63,256 bases of DNA. Origin: Candidatus Aminicenantes bacterium (GTDB taxonomy: Bacteria; Acidobacteriota; Aminicenantia; JAMOAD01). Shown here in pieces: positions 1 to 29,068 of this stretch (positions are counted from its first letter, which is position 1; each line of letters starts with the position of its first letter). The stretch is from the NCBI GenBank assembly GCA_027031485.1, contig JALVQI010000218.1, positions 1-63,256 of the forward strand. The letters are read 5' to 3'. The position numbers and the translations under genes were made by a program. Under the pieces are notes generated by a model. That model made no database searches. It worked only from the letters and a program-made list of their open reading frames with translations, and was not told where the DNA came from.

Positions 1-557
1 CATCCTGGGAAAAAGGGACGACATATAATATAACATGGACAAAGAGCGGTAATATGAATTCACGTGTAAAAATCAGGCTGTACCGGGGAAATACAAAGGT
101 TTTGAGGATAACAAATTCAACAGCAAATGATGGTTCGTACAGCTGGACAGTTCCGGCTTCACTTCAGAACGGTCAATACAAGATAAGAGTGAAAACCATA
201 GATAATCAGGTATATGATGACAGCGACTCATTCCAGATAACTGATAATTCAGGCCAGCCAAGTATAACGATAACCTCACCTTCTTCGGGGACATCCTGGG
301 AAAAAGGGACGACATATAATATAACATGGACAAAGAGCGGTAATATGAATTCACGTGTAAAAATCAGGTTGTACCGGGGAAATACAAAGGTTCTTGGAAT
401 AACAGATTCAACAGCAAATGATGGTTCGTACAGCTGGACAGTTCCGGCTTCACTTCAGAACGGTCAATACAAGATAAGAGTGAAAACCATAGATAATCAG
501 GTATATGATGACAGTGAGTCATTCCGGATAACTGAAGCATCCGGAACCGGGTTTTAG
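1..557 (+). CDS. Secreted Ig-like-repeat family protein (member 1). The 5' end lies outside the window; two ~97-aa repeats are followed by a stop.
   Basis: The frame is open from nt 3 (SWEKGTTYNITWTKSGNMNSRVKIRL...) to TAG at 555-557. It holds two copies of the family repeat W.KG.TY.ITWTKSG.MN..VKIRL...NDGSYSWTVP...G.Y.IRVKT.DN.VYDDS..F.I. Confidence 0.8.
   Translation, partial: SWEKGTTYNITWTKSGNMNSRVKIRLYRGNTKVLRITNSTANDGSYSWTVPASLQNGQYKIRVKTIDNQVYDDSDSFQITDNSGQPSITITSPSSGTSWEKGTTYNITWTKSGNMNSRVKIRLYRGNTKVLGITDSTANDGSYSWTVPASLQNGQYKIRVKTIDNQVYDDSESFRITEASGTGF
1..557 (+). repeat. Intragenic tandem repeat, 291-bp period, about 1.9 near-identical units
   Basis: catcctgggaaaaagggacgacatataatataacatgg... 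at nt 1 recurs at nt 292. Only a handful of substitutions separate the units. Confidence 0.9.
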
Positions 558-793
558 AAATTTTCCGCTGTTTATACATTTAAAGAATATCACGCTTATG
601 GTACTTATTTAATGAATTGATAGATTTTTTATATTTATATATACGGTAACCTTTGTAGTTACCACAAAGTTTGTCATAAAAATAAAAGAATAAAATAAAA
701 AGGAAATAAGTAAATTAAATATTTTAATCAAAATAATCTCAAAAAATAATATTCAAAAAAATTTAATAAATAATACTACTTTCATTAACATAT

Positions 794-814
794 TTGTCGA
801 AATCCTACAATTTT
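794..814 (+). promoter_or_regulatory. Upstream TGTCGAA...ACAATTTT element (reverse orientation of TTCGACAAAATTGT); candidate activator site for the 922 gene
   Basis: ttgtcgaaatcctacaatttt lies 78 bp upstream of the -24 element. The same motif family recurs upstream of most paralogues. Confidence 0.4.
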
Positions 815-871
815 GCCATACCGATAAGGCTGTAATAGTATTGAAATACAAAAAAACATATAAAATTTTAG

Positions 872-886
872 TGGAATGAAAATTGA
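872..886 (+). promoter_or_regulatory. Sigma-54 type -24/-12 promoter candidate (TGGAAT-N5-TTGA) for the 922 gene
   Basis: TGGAATgaaaaTTGA, with the -12 G 37 nt from the ATG. Caveat: an extended -10-like TGcTATAAT sits at 887-895, so sigma-70 initiation is not excluded. Confidence 0.5.
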
Positions 887-921
887 TGCTATAATTATCA
901 TGAATTTAAAAGGAGGGAAAA

Positions 922-2295
922 ATGAGGAAAAGAATCTTTTTTATTTTAATCATAACATTGTTTATCTCTGTTTTTGTTTATTCACAAAGCATCACAGTAA
1001 CAAGTCCCCACTCAGGAGATTTCTGGGAAAAAGGTAAAACCTATACAATCACCTGGACAAAGAGCGGCACTATGAATGCGAATGTTAAAATCAGATTGAT
1101 GCAGAATGGCTCAAGGGTACTCCCCATAACAGATTCAACTCCTAATAACGGAAGCTACAGCTGGGAAGTTCCTGTAGATCTTGCAAACGGTTCTTATTAC
1201 ATAAGAGTGAAGACAGTGGATAATCAGGTGTATGATGATGGTGAAGCTTTTACGATAGGAAATAGTTCTTCTGCAAGTATCACAGTAACAAACCCCCATT
1301 CGGGTCAGATATGGTGCAAAGGCAAGACCTATACAATCACCTGGACAAAGAGCGGAACCATGTATCCTAATGTCAAAATCAGATTGTTTCATGGGAGCAC
1401 AAAGATACCCATAACAGATTCTACACCTAATAACGGAAGCTACAGCTGGGAAGTTCCTGTAGATCTTGCAAACGGTTCTTATTACATAAGAGTGAAGACA
1501 GTGGATAATCAGGTGTATGATGATGGTGAAGCTTTTACAATTCAAAATTGTTTTGTTGGTATCGGTAATAACACTAATTATAGTAAATATGGTAGTGCCT
1601 ATAAACTTCAAAAATTACCGGATCTAACACCAGAAAAAGAAAATGTTGGATTTATAAATTGGGAATTAAAAATTGTTAGATTTAGAGTAGATATAAGAAA
1701 CAAAGGTGCCTCAGATGCCCATAATATTCCTGTTAAATTAGAAGTTTACAAAAGAGGAGCTCCTGCTCGTTTGCTAAAAACTTTTACTGACTCAATTGAT
1801 TTTCTTCCTCAAGAAGTATATGTGACCCGTGTTTTTGATTATAAATTACCGGAAATCGGAACGTATGATTTTATATTCAAGATAAATCCCGATCATACTG
1901 TAAGTGAATATAGGTATGACAATAATACCAGTGTAAGAAAATCAATTTCGAGAGAAAAATTACCCGACCTCATTGTTTGGCTTATGACTAAGAGGGTTGA
2001 TATTATTTCAAGATCAAAAATATGGATAGGTGTTCAAAATATAGGGCAAAAGACATCACCTCCCACTAAGTTGAAAGTATATATACAGACAAAAGGAACA
2101 AAATACCTTGATATTCCGGCAATAGAACCGGGGAAATTTTATACTGCCGAGAGAAAGGAGTGGTTTCACTCCTTAAAAGATGTATGGGTAGAGATGTGGA
2201 TTGACCCTTTCAACACTATTAGAGAGGACAGGGAAAAGAACAACCATGCCAAAACAAAGTTGGATGTCTGGAGTCATACTGTTTTTAGTAAATAG
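922..2295 (+). CDS. Secreted repeat-family protein (member 2): signal peptide + 2 Ig-like repeats + two CARDB-like tail domains (type A tail)
   Basis: An AGGAGGG Shine-Dalgarno precedes the start. The signal peptide is MRKRIFFILIITLFISVFVYS/QS. There are two PHSG..W.KGKTYTITWTKSG repeats. The tail has PDL...N.G... blocks ending EYRYDNNT and DPFNTIREDREKNN, a CARDB-type signature. Confidence 0.85.
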   Translation: MRKRIFFILIITLFISVFVYSQSITVTSPHSGDFWEKGKTYTITWTKSGTMNANVKIRLMQNGSRVLPITDSTPNNGSYSWEVPVDLANGSYYIRVKTVDNQVYDDGEAFTIGNSSSASITVTNPHSGQIWCKGKTYTITWTKSGTMYPNVKIRLFHGSTKIPITDSTPNNGSYSWEVPVDLANGSYYIRVKTVDNQVYDDGEAFTIQNCFVGIGNNTNYSKYGSAYKLQKLPDLTPEKENVGFINWELKIVRFRVDIRNKGASDAHNIPVKLEVYKRGAPARLLKTFTDSIDFLPQEVYVTRVFDYKLPEIGTYDFIFKINPDHTVSEYRYDNNTSVRKSISREKLPDLIVWLMTKRVDIISRSKIWIGVQNIGQKTSPPTKLKVYIQTKGTKYLDIPAIEPGKFYTAERKEWFHSLKDVWVEMWIDPFNTIREDREKNNHAKTKLDVWSHTVFSK

Positions 2296-2370
2296 CAAAC
2301 CCCATTCCTGTTTTTTGTAATATTTTCAGATTTTTAATAAAGAACTTACAAGTGAAAAGAAGGTAAAAAA

Positions 2371-3522
2371 GTGAAGAAAAAAAAGAAGGGAAGAATGCAA
2401 AGAAGACTTTTAGTGTTTTTTTAATTGCAATATTCATTGTTACTTTTGGTTTTTTCACAGAATATCAAAATAAAAAGTCCCCACTCTGGAGACACATGGT
2501 ATAAAGGACAAACTTATACAATCACCTGGACAAAAACAGGTACAATGAATTCAAATGTAAAGATAAGACTAATACAGAATGGGACAAAAATATTGGGAAT
2601 CACAGATTTAACTCCTAACAATGGAACCTTCAACTGGCCAATACCTGCAAATTTAGTCTCAGGTACTTACTATATAAGAGTAAAGACAATAGACAATGCT
2701 GTATATGATGATGGAGAGGAATTTACGATTACTAATGTAGTTAATCCTCCTGTTAATACTATTAGGATTACGAATCCCCACGGCGAAGTAACATGGGCAT
2801 TAAACTCAAGGAATATGATTCAATGGACATATGAAGGTAGTGGTAACATAGTGATACAATTGTATCAATCATGTTCACCTGTCGGAACAATATATGATGG
2901 ACCAAATACAGGAAGTTTTAATTGGATTATTGATAAATATTTGAACGGAAGTTCTATAACCAGAGGTAGCTATAAGTTAAGAGTAAGTTCAAAAGATACT
3001 CCTTCAGTCTATGATGAAGTTGATCTAACTGTTAAAGGTGAAAGTCATATTTCCTATAAGGATAGTTTCTTATCCTCATCATTAAAAGAAATTGATTTTA
3101 CAGTAGGTGAACATCAATATAACCCTTCAAGAAAACTTTTATTGTTTGAAGTTAAGTCTTCAGTACCTTATCAGGGAAAGATTAATTATGTTGTATTTAT
3201 GGAATCCACATTGGTTTCAAGAAGGCAAAACGCAAAAATCACGGGTGAAGTGAATTTTAACAATGAAACAAGAAAAACAGTTGAACTTAATATTTATAGA
3301 TATCTTCCAGCATCGCTCTATTGGTGTTATAAAGTAATCTTTATTGTTAATGATAAACAGGCTGGAGCTAATATAGTGCCAGAGAAAACACATTTTAATA
3401 ATTCTTCTGAAGGTTTTATATGTAATAGAAAAAAGGTGAGCTTTGAAGATTTAAAAATTAGGCTGATAAAGAATAGAGAGTACTATTGGAAACCCATTCC
3501 AAGAAAAACAGAAATTATTTAA
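2371..3522 (+). pseudogene. Repeat-family member 3, disrupted (type B tail): degraded start region, in-frame TAA inside the signal peptide, premature TAA at 3520
   Basis: Aligned with the intact 26571 start region: ATG has become GTG (2371), the SD AGGAGG has become AGAAGG, and a T8 run is now T7. That gives ...LLVFF-TAA (2422-2424). The frame is restored by an extra T in a second T run before SQNIKIKSPHSG. The expected TGGCAC-N5-TTG position reads TTTTGT-N5-TTTC (about 2313-2328). Confidence 0.75.
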
Positions 3523-3534
3523 ACTAATGAAGAA

Positions 3535-3852
3535 TTGAATGTAGATAACGAAGGAAATATTCAAATTTTCATTAAAGGTAATATAAAAAATTATACTCCT
3601 CGGGTTGTAATAAGAGAAGATTGTATTGTTTACGTATGGGGAGGAAGAGGTAATAATTTACGTGTTTTTCGGCTTAATCCTGACTATTTTAAAATTGAAC
3701 CGGCGAGATATAAAGGATTTACTGCTGATGCAAAAGGCAAATTTAATTCAGACGGAGAGATTAGAGTTAAAATTAGTTGTGCACGTGGACAAGGGATCGT
3801 ACGGATAGTAGACACAATGTGTGATTTATTACTTAGAAAATCGGAAGAGTAG
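3535..3852 (+). pseudogene. C-terminal piece of the same disrupted member, in the same frame and cut off by the TAA at 3520-3522
   Basis: Both pieces are in frame 1. ...YYWKPIPRKTEII*TNEELNVDNEGNIQIFIKGN... is colinear with the uninterrupted ...YYWKTVFSGTRGEVFEYKESDMDLAGNIPILIKGK...PARYKEFTANAKGKF of the 9720 gene. Confidence 0.75.
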
Positions 3853-3983
3853 AAATTTTTAAATTTTGAAGGCTTTACTTTTTTATTGGTAAGCAGTTTG
3901 AGAAAAAATTTTTTGGGAAAGATAGCGAAATTATTTAATTTTTTCAAAATTCCAATTAAGATTAAAAGTATCCTCAACAAAAA

Positions 3984-4008
3984 TGTCTAACTGTTCGACA
4001 AAAATGTT
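3984..4008 (+). promoter_or_regulatory. Upstream TGTC-N9-GACA / TTCGACA element; candidate activator site for the 4125 gene
   Basis: tgtctaactgttcgacaaaaatgtt. The TTCGACA core is 81 bp upstream of the -24 element. Confidence 0.45.
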
Positions 4009-4074
4009 GAATATAATGCTTTTGTATATTTTTTAAAAACTATAAAAATTCTTATATTTTAAAGGAATTGAGTT

Positions 4075-4089
4075 TGGCATAAAATTTGA
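4075..4089 (+). promoter_or_regulatory. Sigma-54 type -24/-12 promoter candidate for the 4125 gene
   Basis: TGGCATaaaatTTGA, with the -12 G 37 nt from the ATG. Confidence 0.6.
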
Positions 4090-4124
4090 AAAAGTGTTTA
4101 TCAATTTAATTCGGAGGTTAAGAA

Positions 4125-5483
4125 ATGACAAAAAAGATTAAGATTCTGTTCATTCTTTTATTTTTTATCTCAGCTCTTTCATTTGCTCAAACTATCACCG
4201 TAACAAGTCCCCATTCGGGAGATACCTGGAATAAGGGGAGAACTTACACAATCAGATGGACAAAGTCGGGTACTATGAATGCAAATGTAAAGATAAGGTT
4301 AATTCAGAATGGAACAAAAATCTTGGGGATAACGGATTCAACCCCCAATAATGGTAGCTATTCATGGACAATTCCTGCAAATATTCCTGATGGAACTTAT
4401 CAGATCAGGGTTAAAACTATAGATAATGCAGTGTCTGATGATAGCGATTCTTTTACGATAGGAGTAAATAATGCTTATCTTCAAATAACTTCTCCCTCTG
4501 CTGGTATAACATGGTATAAAAAAACCACATACAAAATCAAGTGGAATAAAACAGGGTCTATGTCTAATAGAGTAAAGATAAGACTTTATAGAAATGGAGT
4601 GAAAGTGTTAGGAATTACAGATTCTGCTCCCAATAATGGTATATTTGAATGGACTATTCCGGATACGGTTCAGGAAGCAAGTAATTATATTATAAGAGTG
4701 AAAACCGTTGATAATTTGGTATCCGATGATAGTGACTTGTTTTCTATAAAAAATTCAAATATAAATATTAATACGAATTTCAATAAAAAATTCACTCCTG
4801 TCGGTTTTCCCGAACTTGAGGTTTACGGAACTTCGCTCCGCTATACAGGAAATAAAGACGGTGAAATTAAAATTCATGTTGCAGTCAGGAACACAGGAAA
4901 AGTGGATGTTTCAAATGTACCTTATACTTTCATAATAGATGGACCATCGGGAAGATACGATTTTTATTCCTTACAGGGACATTTTGCCTCTATTCCCAGA
5001 GGAATGACAGTTGTTTTTGATAAAACCTATGTTCTTGAGGATGAAGGTAAGTATAAATTTTCTTTTGAGGTTAATCCGAATCACAGAGCCTTTGTTGAAT
5101 ATAGATATGATAACAATAAGTTTGAAAAAGAAATAAAATACATAGGTGCTCCTGATCTCGTTGTTAAGGTGATTGTCGGAATGCATTCAAGATTGGGATT
5201 TTCACATAAAGTATGGTTTGAGGTGAAAAACATAGGAACAAGGGCATCATCTGACTGTAAACTGAGAACTTATATAAAAGGAAAGGGAGTTAAATTTTTT
5301 AATGTGCCTCATCTTTATCCGGGAGAAAAAGCAACATTTATAAGAACGGTAAAATGGTTAACTCTTGGGTATAAAAAGATTGAAGCTATCGTTGATTATT
5401 ATAATATAATTCGGGAAAAGAATGAAAACAACAACAAAACAGATGTTAGAACAAAGGTTGTAACCGGTACAATTTTTGATTAA
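4125..5483 (+). CDS. Secreted repeat-family protein (member 4): signal peptide + 2 repeats + two CARDB-like domains (type A tail)
   Basis: A GGAGG SD precedes the start. The signal peptide is MTKKIKILFILLFFISALSFA/QT. The tail is colinear with the 922 tail (EVNPNHRAFVEYRYDNN ... VDYYNIIREKNENNN). Confidence 0.85.
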   Translation: MTKKIKILFILLFFISALSFAQTITVTSPHSGDTWNKGRTYTIRWTKSGTMNANVKIRLIQNGTKILGITDSTPNNGSYSWTIPANIPDGTYQIRVKTIDNAVSDDSDSFTIGVNNAYLQITSPSAGITWYKKTTYKIKWNKTGSMSNRVKIRLYRNGVKVLGITDSAPNNGIFEWTIPDTVQEASNYIIRVKTVDNLVSDDSDLFSIKNSNININTNFNKKFTPVGFPELEVYGTSLRYTGNKDGEIKIHVAVRNTGKVDVSNVPYTFIIDGPSGRYDFYSLQGHFASIPRGMTVVFDKTYVLEDEGKYKFSFEVNPNHRAFVEYRYDNNKFEKEIKYIGAPDLVVKVIVGMHSRLGFSHKVWFEVKNIGTRASSDCKLRTYIKGKGVKFFNVPHLYPGEKATFIRTVKWLTLGYKKIEAIVDYYNIIREKNENNNKTDVRTKVVTGTIFD

Positions 5484-5607
5484 AAGAATCCTGTGGGAAA
5501 TTTTTAAAGATAAATTCTGCTCTTTTCTCATAATAAAATAATAGTTATATGAATTAATTTCTTTGAGGTGTTAAAGGATTAAACTGTGTTCTCTCAATAA
5601 ACCAATT

Positions 5608-5622
5608 TGGCACAATATTTGA
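5608..5622 (+). promoter_or_regulatory. Sigma-54 type -24/-12 promoter candidate for the 5659 gene
   Basis: TGGCACaatatTTGA, with the -12 G 38 nt from the ATG. Confidence 0.6.
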
Positions 5623-5658
5623 ATAGATTTTTTATTGAAAAGATAAAGGAGGTTTAAA

Positions 5659-6975
5659 ATGAAAAAAGGAGCTTTGTTGTTTTTTTTAATTGCGCTATTT
5701 ATTGTTACAATAGGTTATTCTCAAAGCATCACAGTAACATCTCCCCATTCTGGAGAAACCTGGTATAAAGGAAGCTATTATCATTACACGATAAGATGGA
5801 CAAAGAGAGGTGATATGAATGCAAATGTTAAAATCAGATTGTATCAAGGTGATTCAAGGGTTTTATCCATAACAGATTCAACTCCTAATGATGGGGAGTA
5901 TGAATGGACAATCCCAGAAAGCGTTGATGAAGGAACATATAAGATTAGAGTAAAAACAATTGATAATGCGGTTTACGATGATAGTGAAGATTTTAGTATC
6001 GCAAATCCAACATCCTCATCTGCCACAATAACAGTAACTTCTCCCTATTCTGGAAATGTCTGGTATAAGGGGAAAGTCTATTATATCAGATGGACAAAGA
6101 GTGGAGATATGAATGCAAATGTTAAAATCAGATTGTATCAGGGTGATTCAAGGGTTTTATCTATAGCAAATTCAACACCTAATGATGGATTGTATGAGTG
6201 GAGAATTCCGGTAAGTATAAGTAAAGGAACATATAAGATCAGAGTAAGAACAATTGATAACCTTGTGTATGATGATGGAGAAGATTTTACAATAGAAGAA
6301 GCCTCTGCCATAGGACATGCATTTACCATAACAAGCCCGAAAGCCGGGGATGTTATACTTAGAAGCAGAATGCACAGGACTATAACCTGGGAAGATAATG
6401 GAAGTCATTGTGATGTTGTTTCTTTATATCTTATTAAATACAGGAGCATTGAAAATAGACCATTAACTCCTCCTTCTCTTATTAGGAATACAGGAGTGTA
6501 TAATTCATGGCGTATTTATCCAGGTGACGAAGGGGGAAAATATTTTATAAAAATAGTGTCTGGATGTGATGATGGAGTTTATGGAAAAAGTGGGATTTTT
6601 TCAATACTAAAAAAGAGTAAAATTCAGGTTACTAAAAGAAAAGATAAAGCAAGGGATTTTGCTTTGATTGCTTCCCCAATGTTTTTTAAAGATAATTTTT
6701 TGGTTGTAAGAATGAAGAATTATTACAATGATTTTGAAGGCAACTTAAAATTCAGAATTATAATTTACCAATCCGGAGCTTTTGTAGGGAAGAGAGATGT
6801 AGTTAAGCATATAAGCATTAAAGCTAATGAGACTAAAGAAATCAGATTTCGCTCAAATCCTTCAATTTGCGGAAAAGATGTGACTGTTATAATTGACCCT
6901 GATAATGAAGTGAAAGAAACAGACCGCCACAATAATAATCTTACGTCTCGTATTAGATGTGGAGAAAAAAGATAG
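5659..6975 (+). CDS. Secreted repeat-family protein (member 5): signal peptide + 2 repeats + 1 divergent repeat + type C CARDB-like tail
   Basis: An AGGAGG SD precedes the start. The signal peptide ends GYS/QS. The tail reads KNYYNDFEGNLKFR...IDPDNEVKETDRHNNN. Confidence 0.85.
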   Translation: MKKGALLFFLIALFIVTIGYSQSITVTSPHSGETWYKGSYYHYTIRWTKRGDMNANVKIRLYQGDSRVLSITDSTPNDGEYEWTIPESVDEGTYKIRVKTIDNAVYDDSEDFSIANPTSSSATITVTSPYSGNVWYKGKVYYIRWTKSGDMNANVKIRLYQGDSRVLSIANSTPNDGLYEWRIPVSISKGTYKIRVRTIDNLVYDDGEDFTIEEASAIGHAFTITSPKAGDVILRSRMHRTITWEDNGSHCDVVSLYLIKYRSIENRPLTPPSLIRNTGVYNSWRIYPGDEGGKYFIKIVSGCDDGVYGKSGIFSILKKSKIQVTKRKDKARDFALIASPMFFKDNFLVVRMKNYYNDFEGNLKFRIIIYQSGAFVGKRDVVKHISIKANETKEIRFRSNPSICGKDVTVIIDPDNEVKETDRHNNNLTSRIRCGEKR

Positions 6976-7050
6976 TTATAATTAGTTTTTTAGTTTTCAA
7001 ATAATTTTTCAAAACAAAATAAGCTGAAGGGAGACAAGATCACTTAGTGG

Positions 7051-7064: not shown

Positions 7065-7131
7065 AGATATCTTAATAAGAATAATTTGAATAAATTATGG
7101 AAAAGAAACAATGTATTTTGATTGTTTATCT

Positions 7132-21086: not shown

Positions 21087-23054
21087 ATGAAAAAAGGAAT
21101 TATGCTCTTTTTATTAATCTTTTTCGGATTAATTATTCTCTTATCAGCAGGAAATATTGGATTGATTGAACCTCATCAGAATGCTGTTTGGTGCAAAGGG
21201 CAAACTTATGAGATAGTGTGGATGGTTTTGGGAGATGTCTATCCTGTGAGTAAACTAAGACTTTACAATGCTTCAAACACTGTGAAAATTTTAAATATAA
21301 TCAACAAAGTTCCAACTCCTCAGGGTGTATTTCCATGGAAGGTTCCCTTTTCAATACCCGATGGTAAATATGTAATTAGAATAAAAACAATTAATAATAA
21401 AACATATGCGGTATCAAAGGTTTTTACAATTAAAAATTGTTCTGCCCCCGCTCCTTCACCCTCCCTATCCGGAAATATAAAAATAATTTCACCTGCCCCC
21501 AATGTGGAATGGACAAAAGGCAATACTTACAAAATCAGGTGGCAGTATAATATCAAGAAAGGCATTCCAATTAAAATCAGACTTCTTGATTCTATCACTA
21601 TGACAAAGGTGTTAGGTATTGTAGATTCGTACCCTGGAAATACAGGAAGTTTTGATTGGAAAATTCCCGATAACATTAAGGAAGGAATTTATAGAATCAG
21701 AGTTAAAACTATAGATAATAAGATTTGGGATGATTCTCAGGTGTTTAAAATCAAAAATGGTGTTGTAATTGCAGAATACAAACCGATAAAACTTGAAAAG
21801 CCTTACATCTTTTATTCCCCTAAAAGCACTGACACATGGAGACCGCTTCATAGTTATGAAGTGCATTTGGAATTTTATAGAAATAAGGTGGCATCATTAG
21901 GATGGGGAATAATGTCCGTTTACTCCAAATTAAGATTTAAAATTGTTTCTGTTGATAACCCTAAAGTCAAGCCCCTTATAATTGCTGAACAAAATTATAA
22001 TTCCCCCTACAAACAAGTTCAGAATATTGCTCCTCCGGGAGAGCGTGAAAAAATGAAACATATTTATCATTTTGTATGGTATTTTAAAGGCTCATATAAT
22101 CTTCCCACAGGAAAATATAAAGTAGTTTTTCAATCTTTGGAAAAACCTTCCCTGACAATGGAGAGTGATGTCTTTCACATTGTAAACAATCTTCCTTCAG
22201 GAGGTGGATATTTGGATATTCCCGGGGTCGGAGATGTTAAAATAAATGGTATGTATTTTGATAATGCTACAAAAAATGTATATGTTAGTATAACAAACAA
22301 CAATTATCCTCTATCAGATTTCTACCTTAATTACGTATTGTGTACTACTGAGGGGGGAACAAAATCTCAATCTTTTAAGTGCGAGAATAGAAGCAAATCA
22401 GGGTTTGTTAAGAATATAAAAGTACCACAGTATCAAACTGTTAAAGTCCCTGTAATAAAGAATTTTCAATGTTTTAATAATAAACCACCCGCTTCATGTG
22501 TTAATCCATCCCCTTTTCCAAGACCTATTTGGTTTTCAGCTTCACTTATGTCAAACAAAACAAATGAAGAAGCTGCTTCCATAAGTGGGTTTCTGTGTAA
22601 AACCCTAAAACCTGACATACGGGTTAGGGATGTTCTCTTCTTAGAAAAGAAGAACGGAGGTTCCTTCTGGCTTAAATACAATACTTACAACGAAGTTCCT
22701 AAATATTTGTTCAAAAATACATCCGCCTACATAGAAGCTCCTATACAGGTGGACATTGAAAATTGGGGTTGTACTAAGAGAACTTTCTATATAGATCTTT
22801 ATGTTGAGGATGGTCCTTATTTGAATGAGAAAAAGGGTATCAGATTGGGCTCTATGACCTTAGGACCTGGAGAAACCGGTTATTTTAAATCTTCTCCTGT
22901 TAAAATATCAATTCCAATGGATGGAAAGTTTCATAAATTGGTTTTAATCGCTGATCAGGAAGAAGCCGGAAATGAAGGCTATATGCAATCCTATCTGAAT
23001 AACATTATAGTAACCTTTGTCAAAATTGTCCCTGAAAATAACAGATTATGGTAA
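21087..23054 (+). CDS. Secreted repeat-family protein (member 12, the most divergent): signal peptide + 2 divergent repeats + long unique tail
   Basis: The repeats read IEPHQNAVWCKGQTYEIVW...GKYVIRIKTINNKTY and ISPAPNVEWTKGNTYKIRW...GIYRIRVKTIDNKIWDDS. The remaining ~430 aa match nothing I recognise. Confidence 0.8.
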   Translation: MKKGIMLFLLIFFGLIILLSAGNIGLIEPHQNAVWCKGQTYEIVWMVLGDVYPVSKLRLYNASNTVKILNIINKVPTPQGVFPWKVPFSIPDGKYVIRIKTINNKTYAVSKVFTIKNCSAPAPSPSLSGNIKIISPAPNVEWTKGNTYKIRWQYNIKKGIPIKIRLLDSITMTKVLGIVDSYPGNTGSFDWKIPDNIKEGIYRIRVKTIDNKIWDDSQVFKIKNGVVIAEYKPIKLEKPYIFYSPKSTDTWRPLHSYEVHLEFYRNKVASLGWGIMSVYSKLRFKIVSVDNPKVKPLIIAEQNYNSPYKQVQNIAPPGEREKMKHIYHFVWYFKGSYNLPTGKYKVVFQSLEKPSLTMESDVFHIVNNLPSGGGYLDIPGVGDVKINGMYFDNATKNVYVSITNNNYPLSDFYLNYVLCTTEGGTKSQSFKCENRSKSGFVKNIKVPQYQTVKVPVIKNFQCFNNKPPASCVNPSPFPRPIWFSASLMSNKTNEEAASISGFLCKTLKPDIRVRDVLFLEKKNGGSFWLKYNTYNEVPKYLFKNTSAYIEAPIQVDIENWGCTKRTFYIDLYVEDGPYLNEKKGIRLGSMTLGPGETGYFKSSPVKISIPMDGKFHKLVLIADQEEAGNEGYMQSYLNNIIVTFVKIVPENNRLW

Positions 23055-23333: not shown

Positions 23334-23348
23334 TGGCACGATTTTTGA
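23334..23348 (+). promoter_or_regulatory. Sigma-54 type -24/-12 promoter candidate for the 23388 gene
   Basis: TGGCACgatttTTGA, with the -12 G 41 nt from the ATG. Confidence 0.6.
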
Positions 23349-23387: not shown

Positions 23388-24884
23388 ATGAAGAAAGTTT
23401 TAATGGTTTTTTTAATCGCAATGTTCATTGTTGCTTTTGCTTATTCACAAAGTATCACAGTCACGAATCCTCACTCCGGACAGACATGGTATAAGGGGAA
23501 TACTTATACAATCACCTGGACAAAGTCAGGTTCTATGAATGCAAATGTAAAAATCAGATTGTACCAGGGGGGAGTAAAAATTCTTAGTATCACAAATTCT
23601 ACACCTAACAATGGAAGTTACTCCTGGCCAGTTCCTAACAGTTTGCCATCCGGAACTTATAAGATAAGGGTGAAAACAATAGATAATGCAGTCTATGATG
23701 ATAGTGAAGTTTTTGAAATAGCAAATCCTCTTCCTTCTGGCGGTTCAATTTCTATAACCCATCCTGCTGCGGGTGAATGCTGGGAAAAAGGTTCAACTCA
23801 TACAATCACCTGGACAAAATCAGGTTCTATGAATGCAAATGTAAAAATCAGATTGTTTCAAAGTAGCACAAAAGTTCTTAATATTACAAATTCTACACCT
23901 AACAATGGAAGTTACCCCTGGACAGTTCCCACAACTTTATCCGATGGAACCTACTATATTAGGGTGAAGACAATTGATAATGCTGTGTTTGATAATGGTG
24001 GTTATTTTTATATCAAAAGCAGCTGTGATGAAGGGAGCGGTCCTTCTTTTGACCTGGGAAGATTTACTGCTGCTTTAGATCCTGTTGAACTGGCTATATT
24101 AATGCATGGCCCCGGCCCTATTTCCATAGGGGGAATTGGCAGTATGAAAGAGGTTCTTGAAAAACAAGGTGTTAAAATCCCTATAAGAGTAACACTTATG
24201 AGAGGCAGGGAAGTTGTTCAGGATTTCGGAGTTTTTAAACCTGTATTAAAAAGAGGAAGAGTCTTTTTTAATTCTATGCCGGCAACATTCAGTTTAAAAC
24301 TTACTCCGAAAATGAAAGAGATTATTGGTACACATCCGGAAGAGTTCAGGCTTGTTATAATGTCAAAAGGTGAGGTTTTAGCAGAGAAACCTCTTAAACT
24401 TCAGGAAAGAAGGAGAACCATTGACTCAAGACTGACCACTATTAATCCCAAAATAATAAAAAATATCAGGGTTGTCGGATGCCCTGATCCTGCCGTTGTA
24501 GATATTAAATTTTCCATTGTGCAAAGATATTCACAGTTTAGAGGTAAAGTTAGGATAACAGGAGTGGTAAAGAATGTAGGAAAAGCTGATTATATAAGTA
24601 AGCCCGGTCGTCAATCAATTGTTTTGGATGCGGGCGATGCCGCTCATCCTCTAAAAACAATACCGTTTACGAACTTAAAAAGCGGGCAATCCATAACTAT
24701 TTCTTATGAGCTTAATTGGGATTCTGCCTCTCCGAATGAAGGAGAATTTCCCCCCACTTATAGAGTTTATATTGTCTATGATCCTGATATTACAATGGAT
24801 TCAATAAAAACAAACGATGATTGCAATGTTAATAATAACAGTATGACAAAAAGCGGAAAAGCTATTAACGATATGCTGAAATAG
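23388..24884 (+). CDS. Secreted repeat-family protein (member 13): signal peptide + 2 repeats + type D middle module + CARDB-like end
   Basis: The signal peptide ends AYS/QS. The middle module reads LAILMHGPGP...GVFKPVLKRGRVFFN. The end reads DPDITMDSIKTNDDCNVNNN. Confidence 0.85.
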   Translation: MKKVLMVFLIAMFIVAFAYSQSITVTNPHSGQTWYKGNTYTITWTKSGSMNANVKIRLYQGGVKILSITNSTPNNGSYSWPVPNSLPSGTYKIRVKTIDNAVYDDSEVFEIANPLPSGGSISITHPAAGECWEKGSTHTITWTKSGSMNANVKIRLFQSSTKVLNITNSTPNNGSYPWTVPTTLSDGTYYIRVKTIDNAVFDNGGYFYIKSSCDEGSGPSFDLGRFTAALDPVELAILMHGPGPISIGGIGSMKEVLEKQGVKIPIRVTLMRGREVVQDFGVFKPVLKRGRVFFNSMPATFSLKLTPKMKEIIGTHPEEFRLVIMSKGEVLAEKPLKLQERRRTIDSRLTTINPKIIKNIRVVGCPDPAVVDIKFSIVQRYSQFRGKVRITGVVKNVGKADYISKPGRQSIVLDAGDAAHPLKTIPFTNLKSGQSITISYELNWDSASPNEGEFPPTYRVYIVYDPDITMDSIKTNDDCNVNNNSMTKSGKAINDMLK

Positions 24885-24909
24885 CACAAATCTTTCCTCA
24901 TAATCGTGG

Positions 24910-24946
24910 AAGCCGCCTCTTTTTTAAAGAGGCGGCTTTTTTATTT
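24910..24946 (+). terminator. Rho-independent terminator after the 23388 gene
   Basis: AAGCCGCCTCTTT-ttt-AAAGAGGCGGCTT followed by TTTTATTTT. Confidence 0.85.
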
Positions 24947-25070: not shown

Positions 25071-25085
25071 TGGCACGTTTTTTGA
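25071..25085 (+). promoter_or_regulatory. Sigma-54 type -24/-12 promoter candidate for the 25123 gene
   Basis: TGGCACgttttTTGA, with the -12 G 39 nt from the ATG. Confidence 0.6.
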
Positions 25086-25122
25086 TAAATAAGAATATTG
25101 AAAATTTTTAGGAGGTTAAAAG

Positions 25123-26373
25123 ATGAAAAAAATCTTTATGTTTTTATTATTTGCAATGTTTATTGTTGCGATAGGTTATTCGCAAAGTATCACAATAACA
25201 AGTCCCCATTCGGGAAATTGCTGGGAAAAAGGTAAAACTTACACAATCACCTGGACAAAGAGCGGAACTATGAATGCGAATGTAAAAATCAGGTTATATC
25301 AGGGAGGTACGAAGATATTATCCATAACTGATTCAACACCTAACAATGGAAGTTACGGCTGGACAGTACCTGCAACTGTTGCGGATGGTTCTTACTATAT
25401 AAGGGTGAAAACAACAGATAATGCAGTCTATGATGATAGTGACACTTTTCAAATTAAAACCTCATGCTCTTCGGGTAGTAGCTATCCTTTCTTAAATCTG
25501 AAGAAATATCTTGCAGGAATGAATCTGGGGGAACTTGCGGTTTATATGCATGGTCCGGGTCCTCGGATAAGAAATTTTGATAAAATAAAGAATCTTTTTG
25601 AAAAAGCAAATTTCAAAGAGCCTGTTACTATAAAGCTTTTTAAAGGAAGGACAGAAATTACCAATCTCGGAACATTTAGGCCGGAGATAAGAAATGGAAG
25701 AGTGAATTTTAATACGGTGCCCTCTATCTTAAATGTGAATCTTAATTCAAAACAGAAAGAGATGATGATTGAAAATCCAGAAAATTGTTTTCTTGTTTTC
25801 TTTTCTAAAAGTAAGATTATCGGCAGGACAAGAGTGAAAGTAAAACTTGACAATGGTAGACTTAGTAAAATTCCAAAATTTTCCCCTAAAACTTTTACTC
25901 GTTCTTCGGATCTTGCTGCGGTTAAATTAAGTTTAACAATATATCGTAGTTATCGAACAATAAATTCTAAAACTTATATAAGAATGGAAGCTCAGGCGAT
26001 AATTCAAAATATTGGAAAGAATAATTTTAGAGATTATACAGGGAAATCCTGGATCTATCTGAATTTGGCTACTATGAATGATTCTTACCCTCTGGAGAAT
26101 TTTAAGATTACTTCTTTAAGTGTAAAAGAGAAAAAAGTTGTTACTAAAAAATTTTGGTATCCCGTTGATGGTTATGGTTTTTTTTATCAGGAAGAAATAG
26201 ATAGCGGTGACGCCACTGAAGTTGATAACTATGAAGGAGTTGAGGTTATTATAAGTTCTCCCTTTGATACAAATAGAAACAATAACACTAAATTCATTAA
26301 TAACCTTAAAGTCATGAATTTAATTAAAGATTTTCTAAAAACTTCTAACTTTTCAAAAACAATAACAGAATAA
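25123..26373 (+). CDS. Secreted repeat-family protein (member 14): signal peptide + 1 repeat + type D middle module + CARDB-like end
   Basis: The middle module reads LAVYMHGPGP...GTFRPEIRNGRVNFN. The end reads DLAAVKLSLTIYR...IQNIGKNNF...WYPVDG...DTNRNNNT and is shared with the 26571 gene. Confidence 0.85.
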   Translation: MKKIFMFLLFAMFIVAIGYSQSITITSPHSGNCWEKGKTYTITWTKSGTMNANVKIRLYQGGTKILSITDSTPNNGSYGWTVPATVADGSYYIRVKTTDNAVYDDSDTFQIKTSCSSGSSYPFLNLKKYLAGMNLGELAVYMHGPGPRIRNFDKIKNLFEKANFKEPVTIKLFKGRTEITNLGTFRPEIRNGRVNFNTVPSILNVNLNSKQKEMMIENPENCFLVFFSKSKIIGRTRVKVKLDNGRLSKIPKFSPKTFTRSSDLAAVKLSLTIYRSYRTINSKTYIRMEAQAIIQNIGKNNFRDYTGKSWIYLNLATMNDSYPLENFKITSLSVKEKKVVTKKFWYPVDGYGFFYQEEIDSGDATEVDNYEGVEVIISSPFDTNRNNNTKFINNLKVMNLIKDFLKTSNFSKTITE

Positions 26374-26524
26374 GTTTGATATGAATTTTGTAAATTATTG
26401 TAAAGAAATGAAAGATCGTTTTAGGAAGAGGAAAAGAATGATTTAGTTTACCAATTAAGAAAAAAGAGAAGAAGATGTTTTTTCTCTTTTTTTTTGTTTT
26501 GCCTATAAAAAATATTCGACAGAA

Positions 26525-26539
26525 TGGAACGAAATTTGC
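26525..26539 (+). promoter_or_regulatory. Sigma-54 type -24/-12 promoter candidate (closest to consensus) for the 26571 gene
   Basis: TGGAACgaaatTTGCA, with the -12 G 33 nt from the ATG. A TTCGACAG sits immediately upstream at 26515-26522. Confidence 0.6.
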
Positions 26540-26570
26540 AGGTTCTTTTAATAAGAAAAGGAGGTAAAAA

Positions 26571-27419
26571 ATGAAGAAAAGACTTTTAATGTTTTTTTTA
26601 ATCGCAATATTTATTATTACTTTGGGTTATTCGCAGAGCATCACGGTAACGAATCCTCATTCGGGAGATACCTGGTATAAGGGAAAAACTTACGAGATAA
26701 GATGGACAAAAAGCGGAAACATGAATGCAAATGTTAAAATCAGATTAATGCGGGGTGGCACGAAGATACTCGCTATAACAGATTCAACGGCAAATAATGG
26801 AACCTATAAGTGGACAATTCCAATTTCGCTTCCGAACGGTCAATACAGGATAAGAGTGAAAACTATAGATAATGCAGTTTTTGCGGAAAGCGAAGTTTTT
26901 ACCATTAAAGTTAGGTTTGAAATGGCTAAAAGGAATATTTCTTCACAGCTCACCTTATTAAAAACTCCTCTCCGGATTAAATCTCCGGATCTTGCTATAG
27001 TAAAAACAAGCCTTACTATTTATCGTGATTTTAAGTGGTCGCACAATATAAGATATATAAGAATAGAATTTAAGGGGCTCATTCAGAATGTTGGGACAAA
27101 AAATTATGTGGATAACTCAGGAAAACCTTGTATATTTCTATACTTGTCAACAATGTGGATGGATTATCCGGAAGAGGAGTTTAGGCTTCCTTCTTTAAAA
27201 GTGCATGAAAGGAGAATTTTTTCTCACACAATTTGGTATCCAGTAGATGGATTTATGATTGGAGGAGAATATTTTTACAAGGGTGTTCTCTTTCGTATAG
27301 AAACTGATAAAGAGATAAACAAAACAAATAATTACAAAGAATTTTATGTTAATGAAGTTAAAACTTTTATAGAGGATTTTCTAAATTCAAGTGCAAATGT
27401 AAGAACAATAAATAAATAG
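26571..27419 (+). CDS. Secreted repeat-family protein (member 15, short): signal peptide + 1 repeat + CARDB-like end
   Basis: The signal peptide ends GYS/QS. The tail reads PDLAIVKTSLTIYR...IQNVGTKNY...WYPVDG...ETDKEINKTNN. Confidence 0.85.
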   Translation: MKKRLLMFFLIAIFIITLGYSQSITVTNPHSGDTWYKGKTYEIRWTKSGNMNANVKIRLMRGGTKILAITDSTANNGTYKWTIPISLPNGQYRIRVKTIDNAVFAESEVFTIKVRFEMAKRNISSQLTLLKTPLRIKSPDLAIVKTSLTIYRDFKWSHNIRYIRIEFKGLIQNVGTKNYVDNSGKPCIFLYLSTMWMDYPEEEFRLPSLKVHERRIFSHTIWYPVDGFMIGGEYFYKGVLFRIETDKEINKTNNYKEFYVNEVKTFIEDFLNSSANVRTINK

Positions 27420-27514
27420 GCCCTTTTACATAATTATTGATGGGTGTATTCTTTTAGTTAAATTTTATTGTTTCTTTTCTCAAATGCATTAATTCATACA
27501 TAAGTCATGAGGTA

Positions 27515-27760
27515 TGATCCAGGGGATTGACGATTTAAAAGAGCTTCTTGAAAAAAGCTTTAAATGTCTATAAGAATAAGGTTAGTGGAGAAAAAGCTCA
27601 TTTTAAATTTCAGGGAACTTATCAAAATAGAGCTGAGCATACTGGATAAAAATTATTTTGATTGTTATAAAACCTGTAACATTAAAAAGATTGCATAAAC
27701 CTGATATTTATTGTGCCTGTGAAAAAGTCAGGAATGAGTGACTCTTTTATAAATAAATCT
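27515..27760 (+). pseudogene. Probable decayed relic of a type D middle module
   Basis: Across shifted frames it reads MIQGIDDLKELLEKSFK...KVSGEKAHFKFQGTYQNRAEH...KNYFD. The intact modules read GGIGSMKEVLEKQGVK...GREVVQDFGVFKPVLKRGRVFFN and FEKANFKEP...GRTEITNLGTFRPEIRNGRVNFN. There are multiple stops. Confidence 0.4.
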
Positions 27761-27822
27761 GTTTTAAATATTAAAAAGAAAGTCCTTTCTTCTGATTGAA
27801 AATGATACAAGTTTCGTAAAAA

Positions 27823-27842
27823 TGTCGACATAAATGTCGATC
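27823..27842 (+). promoter_or_regulatory. TGTCGACA palindrome + a second TGTCGA; candidate activator site for the 27965 gene
   Basis: tgtcgacataaatgtcgatc, 92 bp upstream of the -24 element. Confidence 0.45.
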
Positions 27843-27914
27843 TCATTAGTATAAAAAATAGGATTGCTTTTTTATGGATTAAAAAATAATAGGATTTTAA
27901 AGGTTTTTCATAAT

Positions 27915-27929
27915 TGGCATGAAAATTGA
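27915..27929 (+). promoter_or_regulatory. Sigma-54 type -24/-12 promoter candidate for the 27965 gene
   Basis: TGGCATgaaaaTTGA, with the -12 G 37 nt from the GTG start. Confidence 0.6.
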
Positions 27930-27964
27930 AATTTAATTTATTGAAAAATTTAAGGAGGTTTTAA

Positions 27965-29068
27965 GTGAGAAAAAGAGTTTTTTTGTTATTTTTAATTTTG
28001 ATGTTTGTTAGTGTAATTGGCTTTTCACAGAGTATCACAGTAACAAGTCCTCACTCGGGAGGTTGCTGGGAAAAAGGTAAAACTTACACAATCACCTGGA
28101 CAAAGAGCGGTAGTATGAATGCGAATGTAAAAATCAGGTTATATCAGGGAGGTACGAAGATATTGGCTATAACAGATTCAACACCTAACAATGGAAGTTA
28201 CAGCTGGACAGTACCTGCAACCGTTGCGGATGGTTCTTACTATATAAGGGTAAAGACAATAGACAATGCGGTCTATGATGATAGTGACACTTTTCAGATT
28301 AAGGTGTCCTGCTCTTTAGGTGGAGGAACAATTACGATAACTTCTCCCCATTCGGGAGATTGCTGGAAACAAGGTTCGACCCATACAATCACCTGGACAA
28401 AGAGTGGAACTATGAATGCGAATGTAAAAATCAGGTTAATGCAAAGTGGTGCAAAGATATTGGCTATAACAGATTCAACACCTAACAATGGAAGCTACAG
28501 CTGGACAGTACCCGCGACTGTAACAGATGGCTATTACCAGATAAGAGTGAAGACAATAGATAATGCGGTCTATGATGATAGTGACACTTTTCAGATTAAG
28601 GCTTCATGTTCTTCAGGTGGAAGCGGTGGACCTCATATAGATCCATGGATTATTGAAAAAATCAGATTGGCAAAACCTATATGGGGATGGGGTCCGTGGG
28701 GTCCTATAGGCCCGGACGGTCCTGGACCTCTTTGCCCTCAGTGTCTTAGATTGGATATTAGCAGAATAAAAGAAATAGCTACTCCTCCTGTTACCATTTT
28801 AAAGAGAGGAGAAAAAACAGTCCCTGTTCAGATATTTCTATTTCAAGGAGAGGAGCCCTTAACTGAGGTCGGAGAAATCACTCCGGAGGGGAAATTAAAT
28901 CTTAATGGTAGATTTTCAAGACATAATAGAAATATGTTAACTATTAATGTAGGGAAAGAGTTAAACTTAAATAAAGGAGAGCTAAAGCTGGTATTTAAAA
29001 ATGCTGAAACCGGGAAAATTATAAACTCCGTTCCTGTAAGTATTCGTAACAGGAAAATGGTAAGATAG
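27965..29068 (+). CDS. Secreted repeat-family protein (member 16): signal peptide + 2 Cys-containing repeats + W/G/P-rich type D-like tail
   Basis: The GTG start follows an AAGGAGG SD. The signal peptide ends GFS/QS. The tail reads WGWGPWGPIGPDGPGPLCPQC... Confidence 0.8.
   Translation: MRKRVFLLFLILMFVSVIGFSQSITVTSPHSGGCWEKGKTYTITWTKSGSMNANVKIRLYQGGTKILAITDSTPNNGSYSWTVPATVADGSYYIRVKTIDNAVYDDSDTFQIKVSCSLGGGTITITSPHSGDCWKQGSTHTITWTKSGTMNANVKIRLMQSGAKILAITDSTPNNGSYSWTVPATVTDGYYQIRVKTIDNAVYDDSDTFQIKASCSSGGSGGPHIDPWIIEKIRLAKPIWGWGPWGPIGPDGPGPLCPQCLRLDISRIKEIATPPVTILKRGEKTVPVQIFLFQGEEPLTEVGEITPEGKLNLNGRFSRHNRNMLTINVGKELNLNKGELKLVFKNAETGKIINSVPVSIRNRKMVR

Follow-up and report, generated by a model that had tools for sequence, protein, structure and literature searches.

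A tandem array of paralogous, predicted exported Ig-like proteins in Candidatus Aminicenantes: a 5' cassette homogenised within the genome and tails inherited as orthologs

The window, that is, the whole 63-kb stretch of contig JALVQI010000218.1 that was analysed (63,256 nucleotides, Candidatus Aminicenantes bacterium), opens with a head-to-tail array of 16 paralogous genes on the + strand, named here after their start coordinates (g0922 etc.). Comparison of the paralogs with each other and with relatives in other metagenome-assembled genomes (MAGs) shows that recombination in a shared 5' cassette drives the evolution of the family, with stalks homogenised, genes duplicated and deleted and new combinations of stalk and tail formed, and that the tail classes persist across species as orthologs. 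The products probably make up a co-regulated, exported repertoire of binding or surface proteins that is specific to the Aminicenantes lineage, non-enzymatic and all-beta.

In the proposed layout a unit begins with a TCGACA-type element, followed after about 80-95 nt by a -24/-12 promoter (TGGCAY-N5-TTGA/C) and about 25 nt further on by a strong Shine-Dalgarno sequence. The gene would then consist of a signal peptide, one or two canonical Kre9_KNH modules (the 'stalk'), sometimes divergent modules, and in most cases a CARDB-like tail. An enhancer-binding activator would turn on the whole set via sigma-54, and the exported products would have a binding, adhesion or coat role outside the cytoplasm. 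The individually conserved tails may confer distinct specificities and the shared stalk may be a common spacer or attachment. The 5' cassette would provide regulation, export and stalk in common and would also be the recombination substrate for copy-number change and concerted evolution.

Arrays of the same architecture, with 7-13 genes, recur in Aminicenantes MAGs. The locus scan, made with one genome per species, gave 29 loci from MAGs labelled Candidatus Aminicenantes or generic 'uncultured'; the larger arrays are listed in Table 1 and three of them are called JAMOUT, JAMOVU and CAZWJH below. The window, JAMOUT, JAMOVU (L006) and CAZWJH arrays all end at the same epimerase gene (78-80% identical), which is followed by polysaccharide genes, and in L002 a flippase gene is found upstream of the array. 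The 176 relatives of g0922 in the protein database are all from metagenomes and nearly all unnamed.

Paralogs resemble each other in their DNA from a point 50-200 nt before the ATG, across signal peptide and initial modules, to the junction of stalk and tail at about +610 to +650, where the similarity stops. The 5' cassettes of g9720 (-198 to +616) and g16635, for example, have 92.8% identity over 818 nt while the tails are of different classes, B and C respectively. Similarity from tail to tail at the DNA level was only found in the pair g2371/g9720. The tails are closer to orthologs in other MAGs than to any paralog in the window. For g23388 the identity is 62-64% to the JAMOUT ortholog and 29% to g25123, and for g4125 it is 56-59% to the orthologs in L007 and L002 and 32% to g0922. 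The identity of g7183 to its orthologs in L002 and L007 is 44-48%, and that of g27965 to the last JAMOUT gene 42-47%. The nearest neighbour of a module in another gene is found in the same genome, with 65-98% identity in the window and JAMOUT, and between these genomes identity is at most 67%. Over the stalks as a whole, orthologs are 58-59% identical and paralogs within a genome 65-92%. The stalks thus cluster by genome and the tails by ortholog, and therefore the 5' cassette has been exchanged within genomes since the species split and the tails have been inherited vertically. This pattern indicates gene conversion or unequal crossover in the cassette.

Between the window and the syntenic JAMOUT array the tails are 38-64% and the stalks 58-59% identical, compared with 74% and 80% for the embedded and the flanking genes, which supports an earlier note on this DNA in its description of a fast-evolving secreted repertoire. 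The same note described swappable tails on a constant stalk. Exchange is real, yet it is the 5' cassette (promoter, signal peptide and first modules) that is exchanged, and the tails are old orthologous classes. Gain and loss can also be seen between close relatives. L002 (11722-11994) and L003 (11722-14071), with flanks that are 99.7% identical, differ by an indel of 2,077 bp with ends that overlap by 273 nt (one module), which fuses two genes into a chimeric gene of 562 amino acids (aa).

Gene death is seen within the window in the pseudogene g2371 and in what is left of a CARDB tail, with weak similarity (tblastn E 1e-5, 35% over 55 aa), in the gap of 893 nt that precedes g16635. In the pseudogene, recognised as such before, the reading frame is shifted around A8/T7 runs in the part for the signal peptide and is interrupted by an in-frame TAA at 3520-3522, and the split gene calls recur in a second assembly. 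All three stop codons are in normal use in the window (TAA 22, TGA 12 and TAG 11, the standard genetic code); the stops in g2371 are therefore no recoding artefact, and an alternative genetic code was rejected. A duplication is indicated by a 24-nt GC-rich hairpin, AGGAAGGAGG-TTTT-CCTCCTTCCT, which is identical 3' of g14323 and g16635, the two long genes of class C. The terminator therefore seems to have been copied along when duplication gave rise to this pair.

Alignment of the upstream regions of the array revealed a conserved TGGCAY-N5-TTGA/C motif. The degenerate form TGGHAY-N5-YTGH has 18 matches in the window against 3.7 +/- 1.8 in shuffles, and 14 of the 15 complete array genes have it on the + strand at a distance of 46-69 nt, mostly 50 nt, upstream of the ATG. 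It is absent upstream of the pseudogene g2371, the embedded propeller gene and the epimerase gene. When at most one mismatch was allowed, the sigma-54 core TGGCAC-N5-TTGC gave eight matches in the window, seven of which are array promoter sites. The motif is in the same place in the related arrays, where some of the L007 copies are an exact TGGCACG-N4-TTGC. A scan for sigma-70 promoters over 1-20 kb gave results not above those for shuffles and was uninformative.

The candidate enhancer, the TCGACA element, is not more frequent in the window than expected by chance (11 vs 10 occurrences) and only its placement is non-random. Ten of the 11 occurrences are in intergenic regions of the array, and with the exception of 26516 the sites are 77-94 nt upstream of a -24 motif, often (as TCGACA/TGTCGA) within an imperfect inverted repeat such as TGTCTAA-N3-TTCGACA. 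Of 40 promoters compared across genomes 17 have the element at -68 to -99, with a background of about 0.02 per 100 nt. This placement fits the published distance of sigma-54 enhancers, typically 70-150 bp upstream, and experimentally supported sigma-54 promoters in Salmonella include variants with TTGA and TTGT at -12 (PMC3844500).

Genes with a Sigma54_activat domain adjoin family genes in two of the other loci, L012 and L025, and each of these family genes has the -24/-12 motif. The L012 activator is a response regulator of NtrC type, with a Reg_prop/Y_Y_Y histidine kinase on the other side of the family gene, and the L025 activator is a protein of 1,114 aa. From the motifs and the gene neighbourhood it is proposed that the array genes depend on sigma-54 as separate units, one per gene, and would be switched on jointly by an enhancer-binding activator. 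This regulatory layer, with the sigma-54-type promoters, was missed in the earlier note. Family genes in L012 (6306-13322) and L022 (6514-10774) stand between or beside periplasmic Reg_prop/Y_Y_Y sensors, and the L022 sensor is fused to a GGDEF diguanylate cyclase. The arrays in L011, L023, L026, L029 and L033 have TGAGATATT upstream, followed after about 17-20 nt by a TATATAAT-like sequence, which suggests that distant Aminicenantes lineages have another promoter or regulator for the same family.

A hidden Markov model built from the repeats identified 36 modules of about 92-100 aa in the 16 genes, 1-6 per gene. The canonical modules are 60-98% identical to each other and the distal ones (m3-m6 of g9720, m3 of g5659 and g12700, m2 of g19509 and g2371) 20-45%. 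An alignment of 27 modules, the canonical ones and three more divergent, has 16 invariant and 19 nearly invariant columns. Kre9_KNH (PF10342), which the earlier note had named for the repeat pattern, is matched by all 16 proteins with 45.6-176.5 bits (gathering cut-off 24.6 bits). The one module modelled with AlphaFold2 gave an immunoglobulin (Ig)/Fn3-like sandwich of nine strands with pLDDT 98.3, in agreement with the fold proposed earlier. Its Foldseek matches in the PDB are generic Fn3-like, MG and Ig domains with TM about 0.5-0.6, the best being the CbhA Fn3-like modules and the alpha2-macroglobulin MG domain (TM about 0.55). A sequence search of the PDB with the module profile gave marginal matches to MG domains and AA9 alone (E >= 0.03), and no close solved relative was found in the sequence and fold comparisons with the PDB. 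The module type is very common, a point missed in the earlier note: with a limit of E <= 1e-3 its profile matches 20,265 representative proteins, and with one of E <= 1e-30 it matches 2,498. Giant proteins of 5-7 thousand residues carry 40-57 matched stretches, and the module is also joined to CAP and other extracellular domains and to proteases, in which case the modules sit C-terminally.

The tails are of several kinds. CARDB (PF07705, gathering cut-off 22.7 bits) was matched above the cut-off by g0922 (77.2 bits), g4125 (82.8), g5659 (31.5), g7183 (28.6) and g14323 (26.7), and below it by g16635 (18.3) and g12700 (17.7). There was no Pfam match to CARDB in the B and D tails, g19509, g21087 or g27965. 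The class A tails consist of two CARDB domains. Profile comparison with these tails (HHalign) gave a probability of 80-95% for class C, class D (g23388 and g25123), g7183 and g12700, which thus appear to have CARDB-like domains, and at most 10%, in the comparisons run, for class B, g19509, g21087 and g27965. The CARDB nature that had been suggested for the tails is clear for five of them and probably extends in a CARDB-like form to C, D and g12700; the tails of class B, g19509, g21087 and g27965 are unassigned. With BLASTP and HHalign the tails group as A (g0922/g4125), B (g2371/g9720), C (g14323/g16635 and the short g5659 tail) and D (g23388/g25123/g26571). This is the grouping given before except for g27965, which was rejected as a D member (HHalign probability 2-8%) and has its own ortholog in another genome. 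The motif D..N...E..E.NN, with which most tails had been said to end, is in its strict form found in 7 of the 16 proteins, terminal in five and internal in g14323 and g16635, and in a looser form in three more, so that 'most' was generous. DNRLRE (NF033679), another family named earlier, was only matched by the g19509 tail, with 24 bits (E 3.3e-5) and thus below the NCBIfam cut-off of 34 bits. For choice-of-anchor X (NF041940, cut-off 25 bits), g9720 reached 39.6 bits summed over its modules with no single stretch passing, g16635 17.2 bits and g7183 16.9 bits. No catalytic domain was found in the array proteins with Pfam and NCBIfam, and together with the PDB sequence searches these gave Ig-type domains only. 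Judged by domain content, the array proteins would be strings of beta-sandwich domains, the make-up of adhesins, coat proteins and binding proteins.

By inspection the 14 intact N-termini fit the pattern of Sec export and signal peptidase I cleavage, with MKK or MRK, 12-15 hydrophobic residues and no lipobox. A signal peptide on each gene, as stated in the earlier note, thus holds for these 14, while g0001 is truncated and g2371 frameshifted. The signal peptides usually end in [FY]SQ or SA directly before the first module; about half of the relatives have SAG, GG or SA in place of [FY]SQ. The [FY]SQ end recalls the 'Q-rule' of Bacteroidetes and is also found in an unrelated DUF481 protein at 56067-56900. 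Signal peptides that end in Q may be a general trait of exported proteins in this organism.

At the other end, no LPXTG or PEP-CTERM motif with a hydrophobic helix was found at any array C-terminus (regular expressions, a check for hydrophobic runs, Pfam and NCBIfam). No window protein matched the Por_Secre_tail of the type IX secretion system (T9SS; PF18962) or a type A/B sorting domain at E <= 0.01, and weak PF18962 matches were seen in some distant relatives. The absence of these three signals had been read correctly before. Nor do the array proteins have a C-terminal hydrophobic or transmembrane anchor or a Pfam match to CWB2 (PF04122) or SLH (PF00395) repeats.

The reality of the array was examined with a comparison assembly, ENA ERZ23491057, named after SAMN10217873, in which the locus is found on two scaffolds. 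Scaffold_10339 corresponds to window positions 460-10357 (99.7% identity) and scaffold_291 to 10303-32039 and beyond (99.6-100%); the gene order is identical and a third record, GCA_027034795.1, carries g14323. The two assemblies show 68 differences, of which two are intergenic and one is an alignment-boundary effect. All others are in the near-identical modules of g9720, g16635 and g14323, where paralogous variants have been assigned differently in the two assemblies. These differences, the start of the window contig within a repeat, the break of the ENA assembly in module 2 of g9720 and the presence there of one extra 2.85-kb unit are what would be expected if the array were put together from chimeric or collapsed repeats of several genomes or loci. 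However, the tails are unique sequence that links neighbouring genes unambiguously, and similar arrays with syntenic ends occur in several MAGs, one of them from an assembly with a 1.28-Mb contig. An artefact is therefore very improbable, and the array itself is not in doubt.

The uncertain part is the copy number, 16 or 18, and the sequence of four modules at the level of single-nucleotide polymorphisms. Scaffold_291 (L036 11709-17396) holds an extra tandem unit of 2,845 bp. The first copy is 100% identical to window 25096-27938. In the second copy the first 160 nt or so are those of the g27965 cassette and are followed by g25123 sequence, and the junction gene is the 5' end of g27965 fused to the body of g25123. 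The switch point is in or just before 51 nt that form the longest exact stretch common to the two cassettes. The extra unit bears the signature of an unequal crossover but could also be an alternative path in the assembly graph. The window may have collapsed one copy of g25123 and g26571. Because the contig starts inside a repeat and the alternative assembly has one more unit, sixteen genes is a lower bound.

Several points weigh against the view of the array as a co-regulated, exported repertoire that evolves by recombination in the cassette. Each functional step is deduced from domains and context. The position of the module at the C-terminus in protease relatives, and its repetition in giant proteins, means that it has no fixed role as an 'N-terminal address'. 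Aminicenantes are placed with Acidobacteriota and are presumably diderm; with nothing more than a Sec signal the proteins would stay in the periplasm, and a signal for export across or anchoring in the outer membrane was not found in the array proteins. The -12 element is mostly TTGA and not the canonical TTGC, the window contains neither rpoN nor an activator gene, and the distant arrays in L011, L023, L026, L029 and L033 have a different upstream motif in place of the -24/-12 motif, so that control by sigma-54 does not extend to all of the family. The modules have a median dN/dS of 0.19 and a median dS of 1.3, with a few recent pairs at 0.1-0.35. Since dS is about 1.3 in most pairs, the homogenisation is episodic, and the similarity of the stalks is in large part due to purifying selection. 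The assemblies that show recombinant variants were made from short reads, at least one of them probably from the same sample as the window, and the variants could be differences in assembly path.

Other explanations were considered, with likelihoods that overlap in part and are not meant to sum to one. It is possible, though not probable, that the array serves a glycan-anchored display, in which the stalk would dock non-covalently on the possibly sulfated polysaccharide of the adjacent locus and show the tails on the surface, much as paralogous cell-wall proteins are anchored through CWB2 or SLH domains. If stalk and glycan co-evolve, the likeness of the stalks within a genome and their divergence between genomes would be explained, and within-genome homogenisation does affect the stalks and not the tails. 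The array adjoins the same epimerase and polysaccharide cluster in four genomes, with the L002 flippase upstream, but this adjacency may be plain inherited synteny of four close relatives. The exposed basic residues K34, R36, R73 and K75 are invariant or nearly so in the module alignment, and the neighbouring locus has two sulfotransferases; their arrangement as a patch on one face is presumed from generic Ig topology. The occurrence of the module on proteases, CAP and other extracellular domains in relatives is as for a portable attachment module. On the other hand no similarity to a known carbohydrate-binding module was found, the fold matches are generic Ig/Fn3/MG ones at TM about 0.55, and up to 57 matched stretches in giant proteins are typical of spacer domains. 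The latter observation also fits soluble secreted or periplasmic proteins that bind polymers or form, for instance, a biofilm matrix, are unattached and have Ig modules as stable spacers. This is a doubtful alternative that differs from the proposed repertoire in localisation only. No known anchor or sorting signal was found in the array proteins, the module is a common repeat of very large repetitive proteins, and the Reg_prop/Y_Y_Y-GGDEF protein (L022) and the Reg_prop kinase (L012) beside family genes would fit a regulation of lifestyle or biofilm type, but the conserved place beside an envelope-glycan locus slightly favours association with the cell.

Phase or antigen variation, with few genes on at once as a result of slipped-strand mispairing at 5' homopolymer runs or of recombination, directed against phage or grazers, is improbable. 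Ten of the 16 genes do have A7-8 or T7-9 runs in or just before the part that encodes the signal peptide, and g2371 is broken exactly at A/T runs; such runs are, however, expected from Lys and Phe codons at 30-35% GC, and both assemblies have the same frame state and no variation in run length. The turnover of genes with chimeric variants between near-identical populations, and the faster evolution of tails than of flanking genes, would also fit, but promoter, Shine-Dalgarno sequence and signal peptide are complete in every gene, silent cassettes are absent, and the tails are orthologs conserved across species. The only recombinase gene is XerC/D-like and 30 kb away. Invertible promoters were rejected, as the promoters are flanked by imperfect AT-rich inverted repeats only and no convincing ones, and so was a diversity-generating retroelement, as no reverse transcriptase was found among the window open reading frames (ORFs) scanned with Pfam. 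Highly unlikely is a conflict or recognition module of polymorphic-toxin or VARTIG type, in which a variable C-terminus would be swapped with downstream cassettes. In the VARTIG system of Thermococcales the C-terminal domain of a secreted, CARDB-like Ig protein undergoes recombination and the loci evolve fast (Makarova et al. 2021; PMC8416519), and the likeness is conceptual, with recombination within the family in common. No toxin, immunity gene or orphan cassette without its 5' part was found, all genes being complete with promoter and signal peptide. The tails are conserved orthologs and not hypervariable, and only Ig-type domains were detected with Pfam, NCBIfam and the PDB. A wider picture can be drawn from these elements, in which a sigma-54/activator circuit would be fed by periplasmic sensors of propeller type, the stalks would dock on a sulfated polysaccharide, the tail classes would differ in the partner, surface or polymer that they recognise and recombination of the cassette would keep the dock matched to the glycan and reshuffle copy number; an envelope-display system of this kind is rather unlikely as a whole.

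The features are collected in Table 1. The 16 starts in the ORF list agree with those given earlier, with g0001 as a partial ORF (3-557) and two starts, 2371 and 2425, for g2371. The earlier gene list lacked a further gene, the unrelated g18126, which sits inside the array.

Table 1. Features of the window and related arrays in other genomes.
Feature	Position	Strand	Description
g0001	3-557	+	3' end of family gene cut by contig start; two modules (94% identical), no tail
g0922	922-2295	+	signal peptide, 2 modules, class A tail (2 x CARDB)
g2371	2371-3852	+	pseudogene; class B tail
g4125	4125-5483	+	signal peptide, 2 modules, class A tail (2 x CARDB)
g5659	5659-6975	+	signal peptide, 3 modules, short class C tail (CARDB)
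g7183	7183-9252	+	signal peptide, 2 modules, 477-aa tail (CARDB/DUF11-like); orthologs in L002, L007
g9720	9720-12359	+	signal peptide, 6 modules, class B tail
g12700	12700-14043	+	signal peptide, 3 modules, CARDB-like tail
g14323	14323-15741	+	signal peptide, 2 modules, class C tail
g16635	16635-18071	+	signal peptide, 2 modules, class C tail
g19509	19509-20825	+	signal peptide, 2 modules, singleton tail (weak DNRLRE similarity below cut-off)
g21087	21087-23054	+	signal peptide, 2 divergent modules, 431-aa singleton tail
g23388	23388-24884	+	signal peptide, 2 modules, class D tail
g25123	25123-26373	+	signal peptide, 1 module, class D tail
g26571	26571-27419	+	signal peptide, 1 module, short class D tail
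g27965	27965-29068	+	signal peptide, 2 modules, own tail class; ortholog is last JAMOUT array gene
2,843-bp unit (g25123 + g26571)	25096-27938	+	twice in tandem in ENA scaffold_291
CARDB-tail remnant (weak)	16125-16289	+	in gap before g16635
Terminator-like hairpin	15765-15790	+	after g14323
Terminator-like hairpin	18100-18123	+	after g16635; same sequence as 3' of g14323
Terminator-like hairpin	24908-24940	+	after g23388
Terminator-like hairpin	29089-29117	+	after g27965, last array gene
-24/-12 motif TGGAATGAAAATTGA	872-886	+	50 nt before g0922 ATG
-24/-12 motif	4075-4089	+	before g4125
-24/-12 motif	5608-5622	+	before g5659
-24/-12 motif	7132-7146	+	before g7183
-24/-12 motif	9670-9684	+	before g9720
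-24/-12 motif	12651-12665	+	before g12700
-24/-12 motif	14270-14284	+	before g14323
-24/-12 motif	16585-16599	+	before g16635
-24/-12 motif	19448-19462	+	before g19509
-24/-12 motif	21018-21032	+	before g21087
-24/-12 motif	23334-23348	+	before g23388
-24/-12 motif	25071-25085	+	before g25123
-24/-12 motif TGGAACGAAATTTGC	26525-26539	+	before g26571
-24/-12 motif	27915-27929	+	before g27965
TCGACA element, candidate enhancer	9576-9581 (example)	+	others at 795, 3995, 7052, 16492, 20941, 26516, 27823-27840
g18126	18141-19394	+	unrelated embedded gene; predicted lipoprotein, beta-propeller fold
Polysaccharide-biosynthesis locus	29290-51612	+	context, not family
JAMOVU010000161 (L002, L003, L005, L014)			array of at least 13 genes
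CAZWJH010000045 (L007)			array of 10 genes
MFD MAG (L023), assembly includes 1.28-Mb contig			array of 9 genes
L029			array of 8 genes
JAMOUT010000075 (L004, L010)			array of 7 genes + propeller gene

The g18126 protein has a lipobox-like MSFSC and a beta-propeller model (pLDDT 88). It has no Pfam, NCBIfam or PDB sequence match, and its fold matches are generic propellers only (TM <= 0.41). An ortholog that is 74-75% identical is found at the same position in the JAMOUT array, and the family has at least 2,510 members, 50-60% identical, in MAGs labelled Aminicenantes, Deltaproteobacteria, Chlorobi and Parcubacteria, some with T9SS tails. This has the look of an extracellular enzyme or binding protein that is highly conserved and has no family model.

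The polysaccharide locus downstream of the array encodes epimerases, two Wzx-type flippases, a Wzy_C-domain protein, several GT1/GT2/GT4 glycosyltransferases, AsnB, methyltransferases and two sulfotransferases, because of which the envelope glycan may be sulfated. Its G+C content is 0.25-0.30 and that of the array 0.29-0.37. Past the last epimerase, at 52767-55769, there are two ORFs of 563 and 385 aa that have hydrophobic N-terminal segments and no Pfam match at E <= 1e-5. A gene for a XerC/D-type recombinase is found at 59252-60133. Up to 60.1 kb the genes are all on the + strand and the GC skew is positive; beyond this point they are on the - strand and the skew is negative. The part from about 58000 to 63256, with 3 kb of the far side visible, would fit a replication terminus region. 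No tRNA genes or Rfam families were found in the window.

Aminicenantes are widespread uncultured anaerobes and to our knowledge almost nothing is known of their cell surface. The locus gives a testable picture of this surface, with a large, apparently co-regulated family of predicted exported Ig-like proteins next to a locus for envelope glycan. The two parts of a gene also differ here clearly in their mode of evolution: promoter, signal peptide and stalk evolve in concert within a genome and the tail as an ordinary ortholog. The promoter motif and the TCGACA element are handles for a search for the regulon and its activator in MAGs, and the array can serve as a marker of structural variation between strains, which is poorly resolved in assemblies from short reads.

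The family was not described in the literature searched, on Aminicenantes with PF10342 and on bacterial Kre9/CARDB arrays. This applies to the combination of Kre9_KNH stalk and CARDB-type tail, the restriction of large arrays to Aminicenantes, the sigma-54-type cassette of each gene and the homogenised 5' cassette as opposed to the orthologous tails. The domains themselves are known. Exported Ig-like proteins encoded in tandem multigene families, with gene conversion as their mode of evolution, are of a familiar kind, and there is no new class of mechanism. PF10342, passed by all array proteins, and PF07705, found in several tails, are domain families and not systems. One homolog has been named 'Ser-Thr-rich GPI-anchored membrane family protein' by NCBI. 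The role of fungal Kre9/Knh1 is in beta-1,6-glucan assembly, which says nothing on the bacterial proteins.

The CWP (CWB2) family of Clostridioides difficile and SLH families resemble the array in organisation only, with many clustered paralogs that have conserved repeats and a variable region and lie beside a surface-polysaccharide locus. The array differs in that it has no CWB2 or SLH domain, its host is presumably diderm, and there are one or two canonical modules and not three CWB2 repeats. LigA and LigB of Leptospira are likewise exported tandem Ig-like proteins, with a near-identical N-terminal part, a divergent C-terminus and implied recombination, but they are lipoproteins of Big_2 and not Kre9_KNH/CARDB domains, encoded by two genes compared with at least 16 here, and lack a sigma-54 cassette. 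Regulons of sigma-54 (RpoN) share with the array the GG-N10-TG(C/A) at a fixed distance from the start codon, the element 77-94 nt upstream and the adjoining activators in two loci, with a geometry as in PMC3844500. They differ in that the -12 element of the array is mostly TTGA and that rpoN and an activator are not encoded in the window. The giant repetitive surface proteins contain the same type of module, while the array spreads 1-6 modules over many small genes with distinct tails. VARTIG (PMC8416519) is similar in being made of secreted proteins with CARDB-like Ig domains, of which the C-terminal ones vary by recombination, and in its quick evolution. It is however archaeal and consists of one large gene with variable small genes downstream, organised as in polymorphic toxin systems, while the array comprises 16 complete, separately promoted paralogs with conserved tail classes.

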